Positions 20,943-26,762 of a stretch of 28,122 bases of DNA are shown here, in pieces; position 1 is the stretch's first letter; every line of letters begins with the position of its first letter. Below the pieces are notes generated by a model that searched no databases, was not told the origin of the DNA, and worked only from the letters and a program-made list of their open reading frames with translations. This DNA is from Anaerolineae bacterium. GTDB lineage: Bacteria > Chloroflexota > Anaerolineae > Anaerolineales > UBA4823. Both the position numbers and the translations under genes were made by a program. Location: positions 1-28,122 of the forward strand of contig JAUXFR010000001.1 in NCBI GenBank assembly GCA_030622805.1, in the 5' to 3' direction.

Positions 20943-21578
20943 ATGCTTGAAATCAAACAATTTCAACTCGGACCGGCGCTAACTAACGCTTACCTGGTAG
21001 CAGACTCGAGTACGAAACAGGCTGTGGCAATCGATCCAGCCTGGGATGGGGAAGTGATCGCTGCAGAAGCGGTGAAACAGGGTTGGCAAATTGGCGAAAT
21101 CTGGCTGACGCACGCTCATTTTGATCACCTTGGAGGGGTGGCAGATGTCGTTAAAAATGTTGACCCACCGCCGCCAGTTGCGATGCATGACGATGACATC
21201 CCATTGTGGAGCATGCAGGGCGGCGCGCCCATCTTTGGGATGCGTATAGACCCCGGTCCTGAACCGAGCATAAGTTTGAAACACGGTCAAAAATTGAAGC
21301 TTGGAACATACGAATTCGAGGTACGGCATGCCCCGGGACACACACCCGGTCACGTGGTTTTCTACTGCGCATCGGAGAAGGTGGTCTTCTGCGGCGATGT
21401 GGTCTTCCTGGGCAGCATCGGTCGCACCGACCTGCCCGGCGGCAGCTACGAGACTCTCATCAACAGCATCCGCACCCAGATATTGACGCTTCCGGACGAG
21501 ACCCGGCTGCTGAACGGTCATGGACCCGAGACGACTGTGGGGGCGGAGAGGCGGGGGAATCCTTTTTTGGTAGCTTAG
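20943..21578 (+). CDS. MBL-fold metallo-hydrolase (glyoxalase II/YcbL-like)
   Basis: THAHFDH, PGHTPGH, GDVVF.GSIGRTDLPGG, GHGPETT motifs. Confidence 0.93.
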   Translation: MLEIKQFQLGPALTNAYLVADSSTKQAVAIDPAWDGEVIAAEAVKQGWQIGEIWLTHAHFDHLGGVADVVKNVDPPPPVAMHDDDIPLWSMQGGAPIFGMRIDPGPEPSISLKHGQKLKLGTYEFEVRHAPGHTPGHVVFYCASEKVVFCGDVVFLGSIGRTDLPGGSYETLINSIRTQILTLPDETRLLNGHGPETTVGAERRGNPFLVA

Positions 21579-21581
21579 AGA

Positions 21582-21666
21582 GTTGCATTGCATAATCCAT
21601 ATGCAACATATCTGGATTTCCTCATAATAATGAGCAGGATGCTTTGCATTTAATATATGCAATGCA
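21582..21666. other. Inverted-repeat-rich spacer between convergent genes; possible bidirectional terminator or structured RNA
   Basis: Perfect 11-bp inverted repeat tgcattgcata 21584-21594/tatgcaatgca 21656-21666 enclosing two small hairpins. Confidence 0.45.
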
Positions 21667-21711
21667 CCCGTTTATTGTATAAAAAAGTAAGCAAGACCGT
21701 GCCCCCCTACC

Positions 21712-23250
21712 CTACTTCGCATAATCGATCGCCCTGGTCTCACGGATCACGGTGACTTTAATCTGACCAGGATACTGCATGGTCTCTTCGATCTTTTTGG
21801 CGATACTGCCTGCCATGGTGACCGCTTCCAGGTCGTCGATGTCTCCTGGGCGCACGAAGATGCGGACCTCTCTTCCTGCCTGCAGTGCGTAGCTTTGCGT
21901 GACACCTTTCTCAGAATTGGCGATCTCTTCCAGCGACCGGACACGCTTGAGATACTGGTCCAGGCTCTCACGCCGCGCACCCGGTCTGGCGCCGGAGATG
22001 GCATCTGCAACCTCAACGATCGCTGCTTCTATCGATTCCTGTTCAACTTCATGGTGGTGCGCTGCGATACAGTTGACGATTTTCTTGTTCATCCCGAAGC
22101 GTGTTGCCAGTTCTGCGCCGAGTGCAGCATGTGTACCTTCTACATTGTGGTCGATGGCTTTGCCAAGGTCATGGAGCAGAGCGCCCGCTTTTGCGATTTC
22201 AGTATCTGCTCCAAGCTCAGCGGAGATTGCAGCGGCAAGTTTTGTAGTTTCTACTGCATGAGAGAGCTGGTTTTGACCATATGAAGTGCGGTATTTCAAA
22301 CGTCCGAGCGTCTTGACGATCTCGGGGTGCACACCATGCACACCCGCTTCGAACACCGCCTGTTCCCCGGCCTCAATAATCGCTCGATTAATTTCCTTCT
22401 CTTCCTTTTTCAGTACTTTCTCAATATGTGCAGGATGGATGCGACCATCTTCGATTAACTTCAAGAGCGCACGTCGAGCGATCTCCCGGCGGACGGGATC
22501 GAAGGACGAGATTGTGACGGCTTCCGGAGTATCATCGACGATTACATCAACACCAGCAGATTGTTCAAAAGCATGGATATTGCGACCGTTTCGCCCGATG
22601 ATCCTGCCTTTCATTTCTTCCGATGGGATGGGAACGACAGAGGAAGTGATCTCGGATACTTGGTCTGTGGCCACGCGCTGTATAGCTGTGACAATTATTT
22701 TGCGTGCTCGGTTTTCACCATCTTCTTTGGCTTCACGTTCAACCTGGCGAATAATGCGCACCATATCATTGCGTGCATCCTTTTCCACATCAGCCAGGAG
22801 CATCTCGCGAGCTTCTTCGGTGGTCATTTGAGATATTTTCTGAAGCTCTTCTAACTCCTGTTGGTGTAGTTTGTCGATCTCATTTGCGCGTTTATCCATC
22901 GTACTCTGGCGCCGGTTCAGATTGGATTCGCGTTTCTCGAGTCTATCTATACGATTATCGAGTTCATTACGGCGTTTTTGAAGTCGGTCTTCCTCGCGTA
23001 CGAGTTCTTTTCGCCGGTGCGATATTTCATCATCTGCTTCTTTTATTTTCTCGAGAGCCTTATCCCGCGCTTCGATTTCTACTCTGCGGGCTTTCTCCTG
23101 CGCCTCATTGAGCGCATGCTCGGCTTTATCGATCTGCTTTCTTCTTGCTTTCTCGACCTGGCTCTTTTTCCAGAAGAAGCCTGCACCAAATCCGATCGCA
23201 AGTGCGATAACTACGCCGATAACTAATATTACAATATCATTAATGTTCAT
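21712..23250 (-). CDS. rny: Ribonuclease Y
   Basis: N-terminal TM anchor, coiled coil, KH domain (GRIIGRNGRNI), HD domain (LLHDLGK), QAGREVRI; start ATG 23250 after GAGG SD. Confidence 0.98.
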   Translation of the reverse strand: MNINDIVILVIGVVIALAIGFGAGFFWKKSQVEKARRKQIDKAEHALNEAQEKARRVEIEARDKALEKIKEADDEISHRRKELVREEDRLQKRRNELDNRIDRLEKRESNLNRRQSTMDKRANEIDKLHQQELEELQKISQMTTEEAREMLLADVEKDARNDMVRIIRQVEREAKEDGENRARKIIVTAIQRVATDQVSEITSSVVPIPSEEMKGRIIGRNGRNIHAFEQSAGVDVIVDDTPEAVTISSFDPVRREIARRALLKLIEDGRIHPAHIEKVLKKEEKEINRAIIEAGEQAVFEAGVHGVHPEIVKTLGRLKYRTSYGQNQLSHAVETTKLAAAISAELGADTEIAKAGALLHDLGKAIDHNVEGTHAALGAELATRFGMNKKIVNCIAAHHHEVEQESIEAAIVEVADAISGARPGARRESLDQYLKRVRSLEEIANSEKGVTQSYALQAGREVRIFVRPGDIDDLEAVTMAGSIAKKIEETMQYPGQIKVTVIRETRAIDYAK

Positions 23251-23329
23251 CGTTTGCCTCAATTCCTAAGTTGGATCATGATCAACATCAGTACGGAAAC
23301 CCATGTGAAGTCAGATATAAAATCTGATA

Positions 23330-23977
23330 TCAAATGGCTTCTTCCGATGCTGCATGATCGTGTTCCTCTGCCCACACCTGGGCGACCGCGGGGGCGCAGA
23401 TCTCATACGTAAAGCCGCGCCGGGCAAGGAAACCAAACATTTTCTGGCGAAAATCGTCCCATTCCAAACTGCTCAATTTATGTGCCTTTTTTTTAGCTGC
23501 TGCCAGCGCCAATTGTTCTTCATCGATTTCTACAAGCGCGTTATCGATGATCTCTGGATCGACGCCGCGCTGCCTGAGCTCGTACACCAGTGCACGTTTG
23601 CCACGCGGTCGCATCTCACAGCGGTTTTCGACCCAAATCTTCGCGAACCGAACATCATCAACAAACTCGTCTTGCCGCAAGCGCTCCAGAGCGTCAACGA
23701 TTACACCCTCATCAACCCGATGCTTCTTCAGGTTCGTACGGATTTCTGACTCCGAACGAGGGCGATAATTCAGTAACCTTAGTGCCCTCTGGTATGCGAC
23801 TTCTACTGCGTCGTCGGATTGAAGCTGAGCGATTTTTTCGTCGCTGATCTCCTGTCCCACACGCAGCCAGGCTGAGACGATGCGTGACAGCCCGAATGCG
23901 AATTCACCATCCAGATACACGTTAACGCGCTGGCGATTGCGTTTCTGTAAGGTGAGGGCAGTGATTTTGTGCATCAT
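23330..23977 (-). CDS. recX: Regulatory protein RecX
   Basis: ALRLLNYRPRSESEI...FVDDVRFA...ELRQRGV...FLARRGF; lies between a recA-like gene and rny. Confidence 0.93.
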   Translation of the reverse strand: MMHKITALTLQKRNRQRVNVYLDGEFAFGLSRIVSAWLRVGQEISDEKIAQLQSDDAVEVAYQRALRLLNYRPRSESEIRTNLKKHRVDEGVIVDALERLRQDEFVDDVRFAKIWVENRCEMRPRGKRALVYELRQRGVDPEIIDNALVEIDEEQLALAAAKKKAHKLSSLEWDDFRQKMFGFLARRGFTYEICAPAVAQVWAEEHDHAASEEAI

Positions 23978-23981
23978 CTAT

Positions 23982-24023
23982 AAACCAAAACAGCCATGAT
24001 CCTGTCATGACAGGCCACGGCTG
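23982..24023 (-). terminator. Intrinsic terminator/attenuator hairpin immediately upstream of recX
   Basis: Minus strand cagccgtg-g-cctgt-catg-acagg-at-catggctg followed by ttttggttt. Confidence 0.65.
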
Positions 24024-24344
24024 TGGGCAGTAGTAGTTTTAAAAACCTGGTATTTAACAGCAGGTTGGTATGATCCTTGAACTGTCTTGAAGCAGATGCT
24101 ATAGAGGTCTGCTAATGACAGTTCCCCGCTGTGGTAAGTATTCAGGTGTTACGATAGATCGATTCCAAGCAATCAGAAATCTCGCCTATATCAGATCACC
24201 AAATTTTATACTGTAAGAATCAATCCGTTCAGATTATTCTCACCTGAAACCCGGTTATACGCACTGCGACACCAGGTAATGCTTTGATTAGCCGTGGCCG
24301 CGCCAATGAAAGAATGATAATAATTCGACGCGGCGATTCGATTT

Positions 24345-25241
24345 TTACAAGCGCTGGCGGATGACCTGTTCAACCTCTTCCATTAACGAGTGGTTATGTT
24401 CGAAGAAGTTAATCGCAGAATCTCGCCCTGGTCCTAATAATGTGTTTCGATAGCAATAGTTCGATCCACAATGTTCGATGATTGTTAGACGTATGCCCAG
24501 GTCAAATATTTCGCCAGTTTTTCTTATACCATCATTATACATTATATCAAGTTCTGCGCGATCGAGACAGGGTGCAAATCTATTCTTAACAATCTGGACA
24601 CCTATTCTATGCCCAATAATCTGCTGGTTTTGGCTAATAGTTTCTAATAGTGACAACTGCAATCGTAAAGCAGAGTGGAATTTTAGCGCTACTTTCGCTG
24701 GATTCTCTTTCAATCTATGATAAATAACTTTCGACCTGCCAGTAGTGATGTTTGTGAAGATAATCAGCGTTTCTGTTCTTTGTAAAACTTTTGCCAACCG
24801 GTTGAGTGTCTGGGATATGATGAGATCAATAGACCGGATGGATGTATGTTCTGGAGATCTTTCGAATTCTGCTGGGGCTATCAGGGAACTGACCGGGTCT
24901 ATCACGAGTACACCGATGGCGCCAGAACGCGCCATAGTCTCTGCAATACTGAGCACCTGGTCTGCTCGTTGTTGTTGAGAAATGAACAACCTGTTAATAT
25001 TAACACCGCACCGTTCAGCGAAACGAATATCCAGAGTCTGGTCGACATCTATATAAACACACATGGATCCATTTCTCTGCGCTTCTGCGACAATGTGCTG
25101 GCAGAGCGTGGTTTTCCCGCTGCCCATGGGTCCAAATATTTCACATATACTGCCGCCCGGTATCCCCCCAGTGCGGAGAGCATGGTCCAGCAGTATTGAT
25201 CCACTGGAAAAGATGACCTCGCTGTTTGGTTTTCTATTCAT
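24345..25241 (-). CDS. Highly divergent RecA-family protein lacking the N-terminal domain
   Basis: SSGSILLDHALRTGGIP, GPMGSGKTT (Walker A), VLVIDP (Walker B), ALKFH, VKNRFAP, GEIFDLG; colinear with RecA from about residue 33 onward. Confidence 0.85.
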   Translation of the reverse strand: MNRKPNSEVIFSSGSILLDHALRTGGIPGGSICEIFGPMGSGKTTLCQHIVAEAQRNGSMCVYIDVDQTLDIRFAERCGVNINRLFISQQQRADQVLSIAETMARSGAIGVLVIDPVSSLIAPAEFERSPEHTSIRSIDLIISQTLNRLAKVLQRTETLIIFTNITTGRSKVIYHRLKENPAKVALKFHSALRLQLSLLETISQNQQIIGHRIGVQIVKNRFAPCLDRAELDIMYNDGIRKTGEIFDLGIRLTIIEHCGSNYCYRNTLLGPGRDSAINFFEHNHSLMEEVEQVIRQRL

Positions 25242-25289
25242 GACTCAGGTAGCAGGTAAATTCATGGATTATGATTGGCTGTGGAATTT

Positions 25290-25318
25290 AGTGTACAGGA
25301 TAAAATGAATAATGACAA
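25290..25318 (-). promoter_or_regulatory. Sigma70-type promoter for the recA-like gene
   Basis: Minus strand TTGTCA (25318-25313), 17-nt spacer, TACACT (25295-25290). Confidence 0.55.
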
Positions 25319-25413
25319 GCATGCATAGAGGATTAACCGGATTTCTGCTGATTACCTTCACAATATGGTAGGATATATCCCGTTTATTCCATGACTGGAG
25401 GAATGAGTATCGG

Positions 25414-25905
25414 ATGGTGACACGCATCTGTTTTGTCTGTCTGGGCAACATTGTCCGTAGCCCATTAGCAGAAAATCTGTTCAGATATCACGCTGAGAAG
25501 GCAGGAGCAGCTGATCGTTATGTGGTCGATTCGGCGGGTACCAGTGCCTGGCACCTGGGTGAACGACCGGATGCACGCATGCGTCGCGTTGCGAAGCGGC
25601 GAGGATTGGTTTATGATGGTCGAGCCAGGCAGTTCAAGTCCAGTGACCTGGATGAATTCGATCTCATTGTGGCTATGGATCTGGAGAACGCTGATGACCT
25701 GCATCGAATGGCACGCACAATTGATCAATCGGACAAGATACAACTAATGCTTGCGTTTGACCCCCAGGCGGGCGCAGATCTTTCCGTGCCTGACCCGTAT
25801 TTTGGAGGTATCGACGGGTTTGAGAAGGTCTACGAAATTGTTGAGAGATCTGTTCTTGGGTTATTGGAAGAATTGAAGCACGGTGACCTGGAGAGTAAGC
25901 GATGA
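25414..25905 (+). CDS. Low-molecular-weight protein-tyrosine-phosphatase family protein
   Basis: FVCLGNIVRSPLAE P-loop, DSAGTSAWH, VPDPYFG. Confidence 0.95.
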   Translation: MVTRICFVCLGNIVRSPLAENLFRYHAEKAGAADRYVVDSAGTSAWHLGERPDARMRRVAKRRGLVYDGRARQFKSSDLDEFDLIVAMDLENADDLHRMARTIDQSDKIQLMLAFDPQAGADLSVPDPYFGGIDGFEKVYEIVERSVLGLLEELKHGDLESKR

Positions 25906-26762
25906 TGACGTACCCGCAGGCAGTTCTCGATTGGTTAGAAGATAGTGGTTATGGTTCGATTTCCTCGTCGCGCTCGGTCGCCGGTGGCTGCATCAATAAT
26001 GGATCGGTGCTTAAGACATCTTCCGGGAAGACATGCTTTATTAAAATGAACCGACATACGCCAGCGGATATGTTTGAAAGAGAGGCGGAGGGGCTCAGAG
26101 CACTGCGAACAGAAGATGGGCCATTCGTCCCTGAATCCTTTCTGCATGGTCCGGATTTCTTGCTGATGGAAGACTTGAACCCGGGTAGAAGATGCAGTGA
26201 GTATTGGTCGCTGTTTGGTCGCCAATTAGCCGCACTGCATAATCATACCCAATCTTTATTTGGTTTCTCGAATGATAATTACATCGGAAGCACGCCACAA
26301 CCAAATCCATGGACAGAAGACGGGCATACATTCTTCGCAGAACAGCGGCTGATGTTTCAGGCCAGGTTAGCGAATAGACGTGGTCTGCTGGCATCTTCTG
26401 ATGTGCGGCGGATTGAAGATCTGTGTGTCTTGCTGCCTGAGATCGTACCGAGTCAACCCGCTTCTCTGAGCCACGGAGACCTTTGGAGTGGAAACGCCAC
26501 AATGGATAAAGATGGTAATCCAACGATCATCGATCCGGCTGCCCATTACGGTTGGGCAGAAGCAGAACTGGCTATGACAACGCTGTTTGGTTCTTTTCCA
26601 GGCACTTTTTACCAGGCTTACCAGGAAGTTCGATCCCTACCCCCGGGTTATGAGGATCGATTTCCGATCTACAACCTGTATCATCTGCTAAACCATGTTA
26701 ATTTGTTCGGCTCAGGATATTTAAGTCAGACCCTGTCAACGCTTAAGCGCATTATCAGATAA
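25902..26762 (+). CDS. Fructosamine/ketosamine-3-kinase family protein
   Basis: GGCIN, FEREAEGL, FGFSNDNYIGSTPQPN, LSHGDLWSGN, IDPAAHYG..EAELAM, YNLYHLLNH. Confidence 0.95.
   Translation: MMTYPQAVLDWLEDSGYGSISSSRSVAGGCINNGSVLKTSSGKTCFIKMNRHTPADMFEREAEGLRALRTEDGPFVPESFLHGPDFLLMEDLNPGRRCSEYWSLFGRQLAALHNHTQSLFGFSNDNYIGSTPQPNPWTEDGHTFFAEQRLMFQARLANRRGLLASSDVRRIEDLCVLLPEIVPSQPASLSHGDLWSGNATMDKDGNPTIIDPAAHYGWAEAELAMTTLFGSFPGTFYQAYQEVRSLPPGYEDRFPIYNLYHLLNHVNLFGSGYLSQTLSTLKRIIR

Follow-up and report, generated by a model that had tools for sequence, protein, structure and literature searches.

A RecA-derived paralogue without the N-terminal polymerisation motif upstream of recX and rny in a lineage of Anaerolineae

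The window analysed here is a stretch of 28,122 nucleotides (nt) from an Anaerolineae bacterium (Chloroflexota; GCA_030622805.1, contig JAUXFR010000001.1, positions 1 to 28,122), whose metagenome-assembled genome (MAG; G000) is 63% complete. Its minus strand carries, at 24345-25241, a gene whose product resembles the recombinase RecA and lacks its N-terminal region (the paralogue in what follows), with recX and rny downstream on the same strand. Positions in the protein are given in the numbering of mature E. coli RecA, residue i of the paralogue corresponding to residue i+29. The gene, its parts and these two neighbours are as follows.

24345-25241, minus strand: truncated RecA paralogue, an open reading frame of 298 aa with the RecA core and C-terminal domain and without the N-terminal polymerisation motif.
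25110-25133, minus strand: Walker A motif or P-loop, GPMGSGKT (residues 37-44, E. coli 66-73), intact.
25041-25043, minus strand: codon 67, GAC, which encodes Asp where E. coli RecA has its catalytic Glu96.
24897-24899, minus strand: Walker B Asp (residue 115, E. coli D144), kept; the next residue is Pro, replacing Ser145.
24837-24860, minus strand: L1-equivalent loop (residues 128-135, E. coli 157-164), unrelated in sequence to RecA L1.
24702-24746, minus strand: L2-equivalent segment (residues 166-180, E. coli 195-209), rewritten, with the family motif Y203-H204-x-L206.
24585-24587, minus strand: Lys219 (E. coli K248), kept; the K250 position is Arg.
24351-24515, minus strand: RecA C-terminal domain (residues 243-297), Pfam RecA_C 49 bits, confident in the AlphaFold2 model.
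23330-23977, minus strand: recX, 215 aa, three RecX helical domains.
21712-23262, minus strand: rny (RNase Y).

The protein is unmistakably built on RecA. Pfam RecA matches it with 201.6 bits over profile positions 32-261 of 262, and phmmer aligns its residues 11-297 with residues 40-326 of E. coli RecA with zero gaps. The AlphaFold2 model (mean predicted local distance difference test, pLDDT, 85; predicted template modelling score, pTM, 0.85) consists of a RecA core and the C-terminal domain, low confidence being confined to the N-terminal tip and the equivalents of L1 and L2, residues 124-135 included, and Foldseek places it at template modelling scores of 0.82-0.86 with the solved RecA structures of E. 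coli and Mycobacterium. The core fold and C-terminal domain of RecA are present by all three measures (model, structural matches and RecA_C). Yet the score against the NCBIfam recA equivalog TIGR02012, 257.1 bits, falls below its cut-off of 325.3, which leaves the protein outside the RecA recombinases as that model defines them. A stop codon stands immediately 5' of the ATG, and a profile of the canonical N-terminal helix and strand finds no match in the six frames of window 25151-25700 (best E 0.68).

The MAFFT alignment with RecA of E. coli K-12 (L018) shows K72, T73, D144, K216, F217, R222 and K248 to be kept, and E96D, H97Q, S145P, Q194I, R196T, G211A, G212K and K250R to be changed. The Walker A and Walker B determinants of nucleotide binding are therefore both there, but the catalytic set of RecA is incomplete: Glu96 is Asp, and of the trans-acting pair K248/K250 only the first remains, the second being Arg. 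K248 is the lysine that reaches the neighbour's ATP within RecA filaments. The DNA-binding loops with Q194, R196, G211 and G212 are not preserved either. Read from the phmmer alignment, L1 shares 0 of 8 residues and L2 1 of 15 with E. coli RecA; the L2 motif runs on to K212, a position where most family members have R. A sequence-only reading of this DNA had described the gap-free alignment, these residues, the rewriting of both loops and the absence of any N-terminal remnant upstream, and all of this is borne out by the phmmer and MAFFT alignments and by the N-terminal profile. It had also called the protein catalytically gutted. That description is overstated: conservation is strict at the nucleotide-binding site and at the trans-acting Lys248, and E. 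coli RecA E96D, although ATPase-deficient and toxic, remains proficient in DNA binding and recombination (PMC6182174).

A second recA gene of the same genome lies on contig C251 (449 bits). It is canonical: its N-terminus is normal and none of the catalytic or DNA-binding residues is missing, and the GC content of its contig matches that of the window. Most genomes with the paralogue likewise yielded a canonical recA at another place, two relatives having both genes on one contig (G021 C1, G062 C11). The paralogue itself is surrounded by recX, the sole recX found in the window's genome, rny, a low-molecular-weight phosphatase gene and a fructosamine kinase-like gene, with neither imuB nor dnaE2 nearby. 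The order of slot gene (the gene preceding recX), spacer of 232-526 nt, recX and rny holds in 34 of the 34 contexts examined. In other families of the same order the slot is occupied by a canonical recA (G029, G030, G035, G036, G037), often accompanied by a second canonical recA elsewhere. Because these families hold a canonical recA there, the slot appears to be the ancestral position of recA. The sequence-only reading had placed the gene in a recA-recX-rny slot and had looked to a canonical recA elsewhere in the genome, and the survey agrees with it on both counts. Single-recA genomes of the same GTDB family have recX-rny without any RecA-like remnant upstream. The simplest history would be one in which recA-recX-rny is ancestral, two recA copies existed, and the slot copy diverged and was later deleted in many lineages. 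As to the genomes with two canonical recA genes, one in the slot and one elsewhere (G029, G030, G036, G037; L025-L029, L035), the two copies of G029 pair together in the tree, which suggests a recent duplication or gene conversion.

The genes upstream of recX-rny were collected and studied together with other RecAs. In the maximum-likelihood tree the 21 paralogue sequences form one clade (100/97), and their sister is an intermediate copy from G019 without the N-terminal motif. Clade and sister together fall within the RecAs of Anaerolineae, next to the canonical ones of their own GTDB family. Terminal branches in the clade are mostly 0.5-2.8 long, against 0.04-0.22 in canonical copies. By its place in this tree, the paralogue belongs to a monophyletic family, so far without a name, of RecA-derived proteins in one lineage of Anaerolineae (Chloroflexota). 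A search of 5.8 billion proteins returned an orthologue with 95% identity, named 'ATPase domain-containing protein' by NCBI, and relatives of 282-322 aa with 42-52% identity that have no N-terminal region; members are publicly named 'recombination protein RecA' (IMG), 'ATPase domain-containing protein' or nothing at all, and no description of the family was found in the literature. A profile search of 1.84 billion cluster representatives gave at least 53 clusters (50% identity) with Asp96 among the best 150 matches. The distribution was surveyed within the GTDB family, since profile searches rank canonical RecAs above the divergent paralogues. About 38 of its 137 species genomes show a second RecA match, and gene order was verified in the 26 that were fetched. 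The paralogue is present in 6 of 6 genomes of genus g22 and in most of g70, as well as in g50, g19 and g52; the same survey shows it in none of the 25 genomes of g7 and nowhere in g68, g69 or g8. A contig scan with a pattern drawn from the family alignment, which is common to canonical Anaerolineae RecA, returned mainly canonical recA loci. A viral-type origin was considered on account of an ESM Atlas search, which gave divergent, mostly viral RecA clusters without alignment or statistics, and was rejected, as the tree and synteny favour an origin in place. PADLOC and PHROGs found only generic P-loop or UvsX-like similarity in the paralogue and no sign of a defence or phage origin.

The locus is real and its reading frame is maintained. 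At least 20 public metagenome runs, drawn from 11 studies of cold seep and marine sediment, contain DNA of about 99% identity, and contigs of four runs from four studies span the open reading frame without an indel, which rules out an assembly artefact. The population polymorphisms listed for the gene comprise 11 synonymous and 9 nonsynonymous ones. Comparison with the 95%-identical orthologue yields a ratio of nonsynonymous to synonymous rates (dN/dS) of 0.29, from 14 synonymous and 14 nonsynonymous changes where neutrality would give about 23:77 (binomial p 0.0016). For the same pair of genomes dN/dS is 0.28 in recX and 0.13-0.40 in the other neighbours. Two further unsaturated pairs of paralogues have values of 0.15 and 0.34, and in all deeper pairs the proportion of nonsynonymous differences (pN) is far below that of synonymous ones (pS). 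The 30 copies defined by genomic context are all single intact open reading frames, even where the adjoining recX and rny are frameshifted. Nevertheless, the protein changes fast: among the orthologues of six genomes its median identity is 38% against 80% for canonical recA, identity between genera is 33-47%, and by the tree and the identity comparison it evolves several times (about eightfold) faster than recA. The claim that the gene is under selection and not decaying neutrally, made from the sequence alone, stands up well to these data; disrupted relatives and dN/dS near 1, the marks of a pseudogene, were not encountered among the 30 copies.

What has been conserved was counted in the same 30 slot copies, which owe their definition to genomic context alone. 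K72, T73 and D94 are each found in 30 of 30, D144 in 29, K248 in 28, N249 in 27 and R222 in 25. Asp96 is present in 29 of 30 and in 100 of the 111 RecA-like proteins without the N-terminal motif. Several residues are newly fixed, namely Y203 (25/30), H204 (26/30), L206 (25/30), R or K at 212 (26/30) and L217 (22/30), and others are relaxed, Q194 being kept in 9, R196 in 6 and K250 in 12 copies. The Pro at position 145 of the window's protein, shared by 2 of the 30, is atypical. A wider comparison of 87 family with 146 canonical sequences, in which the family is defined by D96/Y203/R212 and the frequencies of these three are circular, adds L1, R169, R226/R227 and K286 to the relaxed positions and shows the A214-L215-R222 region to be conserved. 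The N-terminal motif profile matches 132 of the 146 canonical RecAs and 0 of the 111 non-canonical proteins. Some of these 111 keep Glu96, Q194, R196 and G211/G212 (for example L024, L145, P0211 and P0230). The copies L024 (G019), L145 (G102), L139/L140 (G056/G057), P0211, P0230 and P0141, all without the motif and with some or all of E96, Q194, R196 and G211/G212, form a natural gradation between RecA and the derived paralogue. Since such intermediates still carry canonical residues, it seems that the polymerisation motif was lost first and that Glu96Asp was fixed and L2 rewritten afterwards.

The region between the paralogue and recX is conserved as well, and the upstream regions of the two kinds of gene differ. 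The features concerned are the following.

23978-24344, minus strand: structured spacer between the paralogue and recX, 367 nt, minimum free energy z-score -5.0.
23989-24023, minus strand: conserved terminator-like hairpin with U-run, whose end lies about 6 nt upstream of the start of recX.
L001:1313-1324 (contig C251 of G000): GAAC-N4-GTGC box, found also upstream of recA in L028, L030-L034 and L036-L038.

All 34 homologous spacers (232-526 nt; L003-L005, L019-L026, L029, L035, L039, L129-L148) fold better than their own shuffled sequences. The hairpin has 11 consensus pairs, six of them with compensatory changes over 24 loci, and the element is missing where the slot gene is deleted. An Rfam scan of window 21000-26000 with E up to 1 gave no match. 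The spacer may be an undescribed attenuator or leader of recX-rny. E. coli has an attenuating terminator between recA and recX, which the terminator-like hairpin recalls. Conserved blocks of the spacer read CGGCCA..GUGACCAGGCA, then UGAUCUCAG, the latter complementary to a downstream CUGAGAUCA; in the window's own spacer the two complementary boxes have diverged. Upstream of the genes, a GAAC-N4-GTGC box precedes 10 of 10 canonical recA genes outside the slot and 0 of 31 paralogues. It sits roughly 15-100 nt before the open frame of canonical recA, and canonical recA genes of the slot type have at best a poor match to it. No Cheo-type LexA box is present in the 170-nt intergenic region upstream of the paralogue; one mismatched site of this type falls inside the neighbouring gene. 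The box is a putative variant of the LexA operator in this Anaerolineae group. Its distribution suggests that only canonical recA would be under LexA-type control.

The sequence-only reading is right in what it observed and in its main inference, a selected paralogue with a canonical recA elsewhere; the function is inferred. An account that we consider somewhat better than even is that the paralogue is an ATP-binding, hydrolysis-poor accessory pseudo-recombinase of the RecA/RecX system that evolved from the slot recA. The slot copy of an ancestral recA-recX-rny operon would have lost the N-terminal polymerisation motif and afterwards fixed Glu96Asp and rewritten loop L2, while a second canonical recA elsewhere, behind the GAAC-N4-GTGC box, would have retained the recombinase job. 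The resulting protein would bind ATP with slow or no hydrolysis and would be unable to build a cooperative filament or to perform strand exchange. With its ATP-bridged core face and the new L2 motif it could make contact with RecX or with canonical RecA, the latter as protomers or at filament ends. Its transcription would start at the promoter inherited from recA, and read-through into recX-rny would be attenuated. Functionally it would be a bacterial analogue of RadB in archaea, of the Rad51 paralogues in eukaryotes, or of ImuA. The N-terminal motif of RecA mediates filament contacts, and by the residues conserved in the family both halves of the domain-swap polymerisation interface are lost, as are the canonical DNA-binding residues. 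That K248 is conserved would be difficult to understand unless the protein makes an ATP-bridged contact with a RecA-type protomer, be it the paralogue itself or RecA. A bolder version, tentative and clearly less probable, would make the family a bacterial, independently evolved equivalent of RadB and the Rad51 paralogues, in which an ATP-locked RecA core, together with RecX, tunes how canonical RecA filaments assemble or disassemble; bacteria would then have turned a duplicate of recA itself into a type of regulator known from archaea and eukaryotes.

Several observations weigh against this account. The surface that accepts the neighbour's helix (S117, Q118, D120, D139) is degenerate across the family; D139, present in 82% of canonical copies, is replaced here by Ala, Ser or Gly. 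In RecA it is the partner of K6 in a salt bridge between protomers (PMC6511836). K216 and F217 are only partly kept in the family. A canonical contact at the filament end is doubtful because this surface is unconserved and these two residues are only partly kept, and the degeneracy of the surface argues against a textbook end-cap, so that the filament cap put forward in the sequence-only reading is weakened. An aromatic residue at position 203 matters for the contacts of RecA L2 with DNA, and since Tyr203 is nearly fixed in the family, residual DNA binding is possible. The linkage to recX may be historical only, the gene having stayed where recA was. The paralogue is kept in only about 26-38 of the 137 species of the family and is thus dispensable over evolutionary time, and genomes without it retain recX-rny and show no remnant of the gene. 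The very high rate of change would fit weak constraint. Finally, no RNA sequencing run is among the listed runs that hold the gene.

The alternatives differ in how well they survive. The protein could have become a nucleotide-binding protein that has no part in recombination; it might serve RNA metabolism together with RNase Y, or act as an ATP switch, and would have stayed beside recX-rny only because it arose there. Such a role would suit the disappearance of both halves of the polymerisation interface and of the DNA loops, the new conserved motif in place of L2, the missing putative SOS box and a direction of transcription shared with rny as well as with recX. We nevertheless judge it unlikely: K248/N249 and A214-L215-R222, relevant only at RecA-RecA interfaces, are still conserved, the C-terminal domain is retained, and no domain or motif found with Pfam, NCBIfam, PADLOC or PHROGs indicates another pathway. 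Rather improbable, too, is a decoy or partner of RecX, that is, a monomeric RecA look-alike that binds RecX and sets the amount of free RecX acting against the true RecA filament. RecX binds the RecA core and C-terminal domain in filaments, both of which the paralogue retains, its adjacency to recX is invariant (34/34 contexts), and the attenuator-like hairpin, being conserved, would fix the ratio of paralogue to RecX. Yet four genomes of the same family without the paralogue keep a very similar RecX (51-59% identical), and history explains the adjacency equally well.

A divergent recombinase that still works, a second RecA with specialised strand exchange in the manner of Myxococcus RecA1/RecA2, is very improbable. 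The fold is that of RecA, the P-loop is intact, residue 203 is aromatic, IMG labels relatives as 'recombination protein RecA', and E. coli E96D RecA still pairs DNA (PMC6182174). But none of the 111 members has the polymerisation motif, L1, Q194, R196, G211/G212, R169, R226/R227 and K250 are lost, the score is under the NCBIfam recA cut-off, and the protein changes about eight times as fast as recA. Least credible, and strongly disfavoured, is the slow decay of a redundant recA duplicate that has not yet met a stop or frameshift: that most species of the family have lost the gene, that it changes very fast and that many of its functional residues are relaxed is outweighed by an open reading frame of about 300 codons intact in 30 of 30 context-defined copies and 4 population samples despite 33-47% identity, by dN/dS of 0.15-0.34, by the fixation of new family-specific residues and by retention across whole genera (g22 6/6, most of g70), and neutral decay is excluded because 300-codon frames stay intact at about 38% identity.

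The accessory pseudo-recombinase proposed here can be compared with several known systems. Bacterial RecA (PF00154 / TIGR02012) is its direct evolutionary parent, with which it shares the core and C-terminal fold, the P-loop, Walker B, R222, K248 and the position in the recA-recX operon; it differs in the absence of the N-terminal helix and strand, in Glu96Asp, in the rewritten L1 and L2, in the loss of Q194, R196, G211/G212 and K250 and in its coexistence with a true recA. It combines naturally the two best-known lesions of E. coli laboratory mutants, E96D (PMC6182174) and removal of the polymerisation motif, an N-terminally deleted RecA being comparable to the engineered end-protomers of PDB 3CMU-type fusions. 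Unlike those mutants, which keep the DNA-binding residues and the acceptor surface, the family has lost both and gained the L2 motif. RadB and the Rad51 paralogues are likewise derived from recombinases and act as mediators, not as recombinases. RadB lacks RadA's N-terminal domain and has weak ATPase activity. The archaeal protein is a recombinase paralogue acting as a mediator or accessory factor (PMC5480776). The origin of the family is in contrast an independent one, from bacterial RecA and not from RadA/Rad51: the RadB model TIGR02237 gives 45.2 bits, well under its cut-off of 172, and the tree position is inside bacterial RecA. ImuA, a RecA homologue of bacteria, has no N-terminal motif and is not active as a recombinase, as is also proposed for the paralogue. 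It is predicted to dock the RecA-NT-like motif of ImuB, as shown for mycobacterial ImuA' (PMC6511836, PMC11791113). The paralogue stands much nearer to RecA itself, has retained the C-terminal domain of RecA and has an unconserved acceptor surface for such a motif; its score against the ImuA model NF033429 is 37.1 bits (cut-off 150), and the context is not that of an imuA-imuB-dnaE2 cassette. Myxococcus xanthus likewise has two recA-derived genes in one bacterium, RecA1 and RecA2, both full length. Their roles are divided and their induction by damage differs (PMC7029660), but both are related to recombination, whereas the paralogue has lost the determinants of a recombinase. RadA/Sms, finally, is a bacterial RecA paralogue that assists RecA; it carries a zinc finger as well as a Lon-like domain and assembles into helicase rings, whereas the C-terminus of the paralogue is RecA_C, and its model TIGR00416 yields 25.2 bits against a cut-off of 403.

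In the textbook view, bacterial RecA has non-homologous regulators (RecX, DinI, RecFOR), and the use of recombinase paralogues as mediators belongs to archaea and eukaryotes. If the accessory role is correct, a selected, RecA-derived non-recombinase beside recX would blur this divide in recombinase regulation. The family would also be a natural experiment in which a filament-forming ATPase was turned into a regulator, with evolutionary intermediates still extant that lack the N-terminal motif and retain the canonical catalytic and DNA-binding residues scored here. Because members are annotated publicly as 'recombination protein RecA' or 'ATPase domain-containing protein', they can corrupt recA-based trees, counts of marker genes and conclusions on the repair capacity of MAGs from Chloroflexota.

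A few minor observations concern the neighbouring genes and other recA copies. recX opens with two ATG codons (window 23974-23977), and a population variant (run X4) turns the first into ACG; the second, at 23974, is probably the real start. Two candidates for a broken paralogue were rejected. That of G001 (C10, L047) is the sole recA of its genome, of canonical type and split over at least 4 reading frames, probably through an assembly or long-read error and not as a pseudogene, and that of G035 is a canonical recA cut by the contig end. G151 has, in addition to the paralogue and another canonical recA, a third, canonical-looking recA that is not beside recX (C16, L131). In the P0006/P0007 lineage (L005 11635-12663; L040 4860-5136), a gene for a 342-aa Peptidase_S24 protein (LexA/UmuD-like) lies just 3' of rny on the opposite strand.

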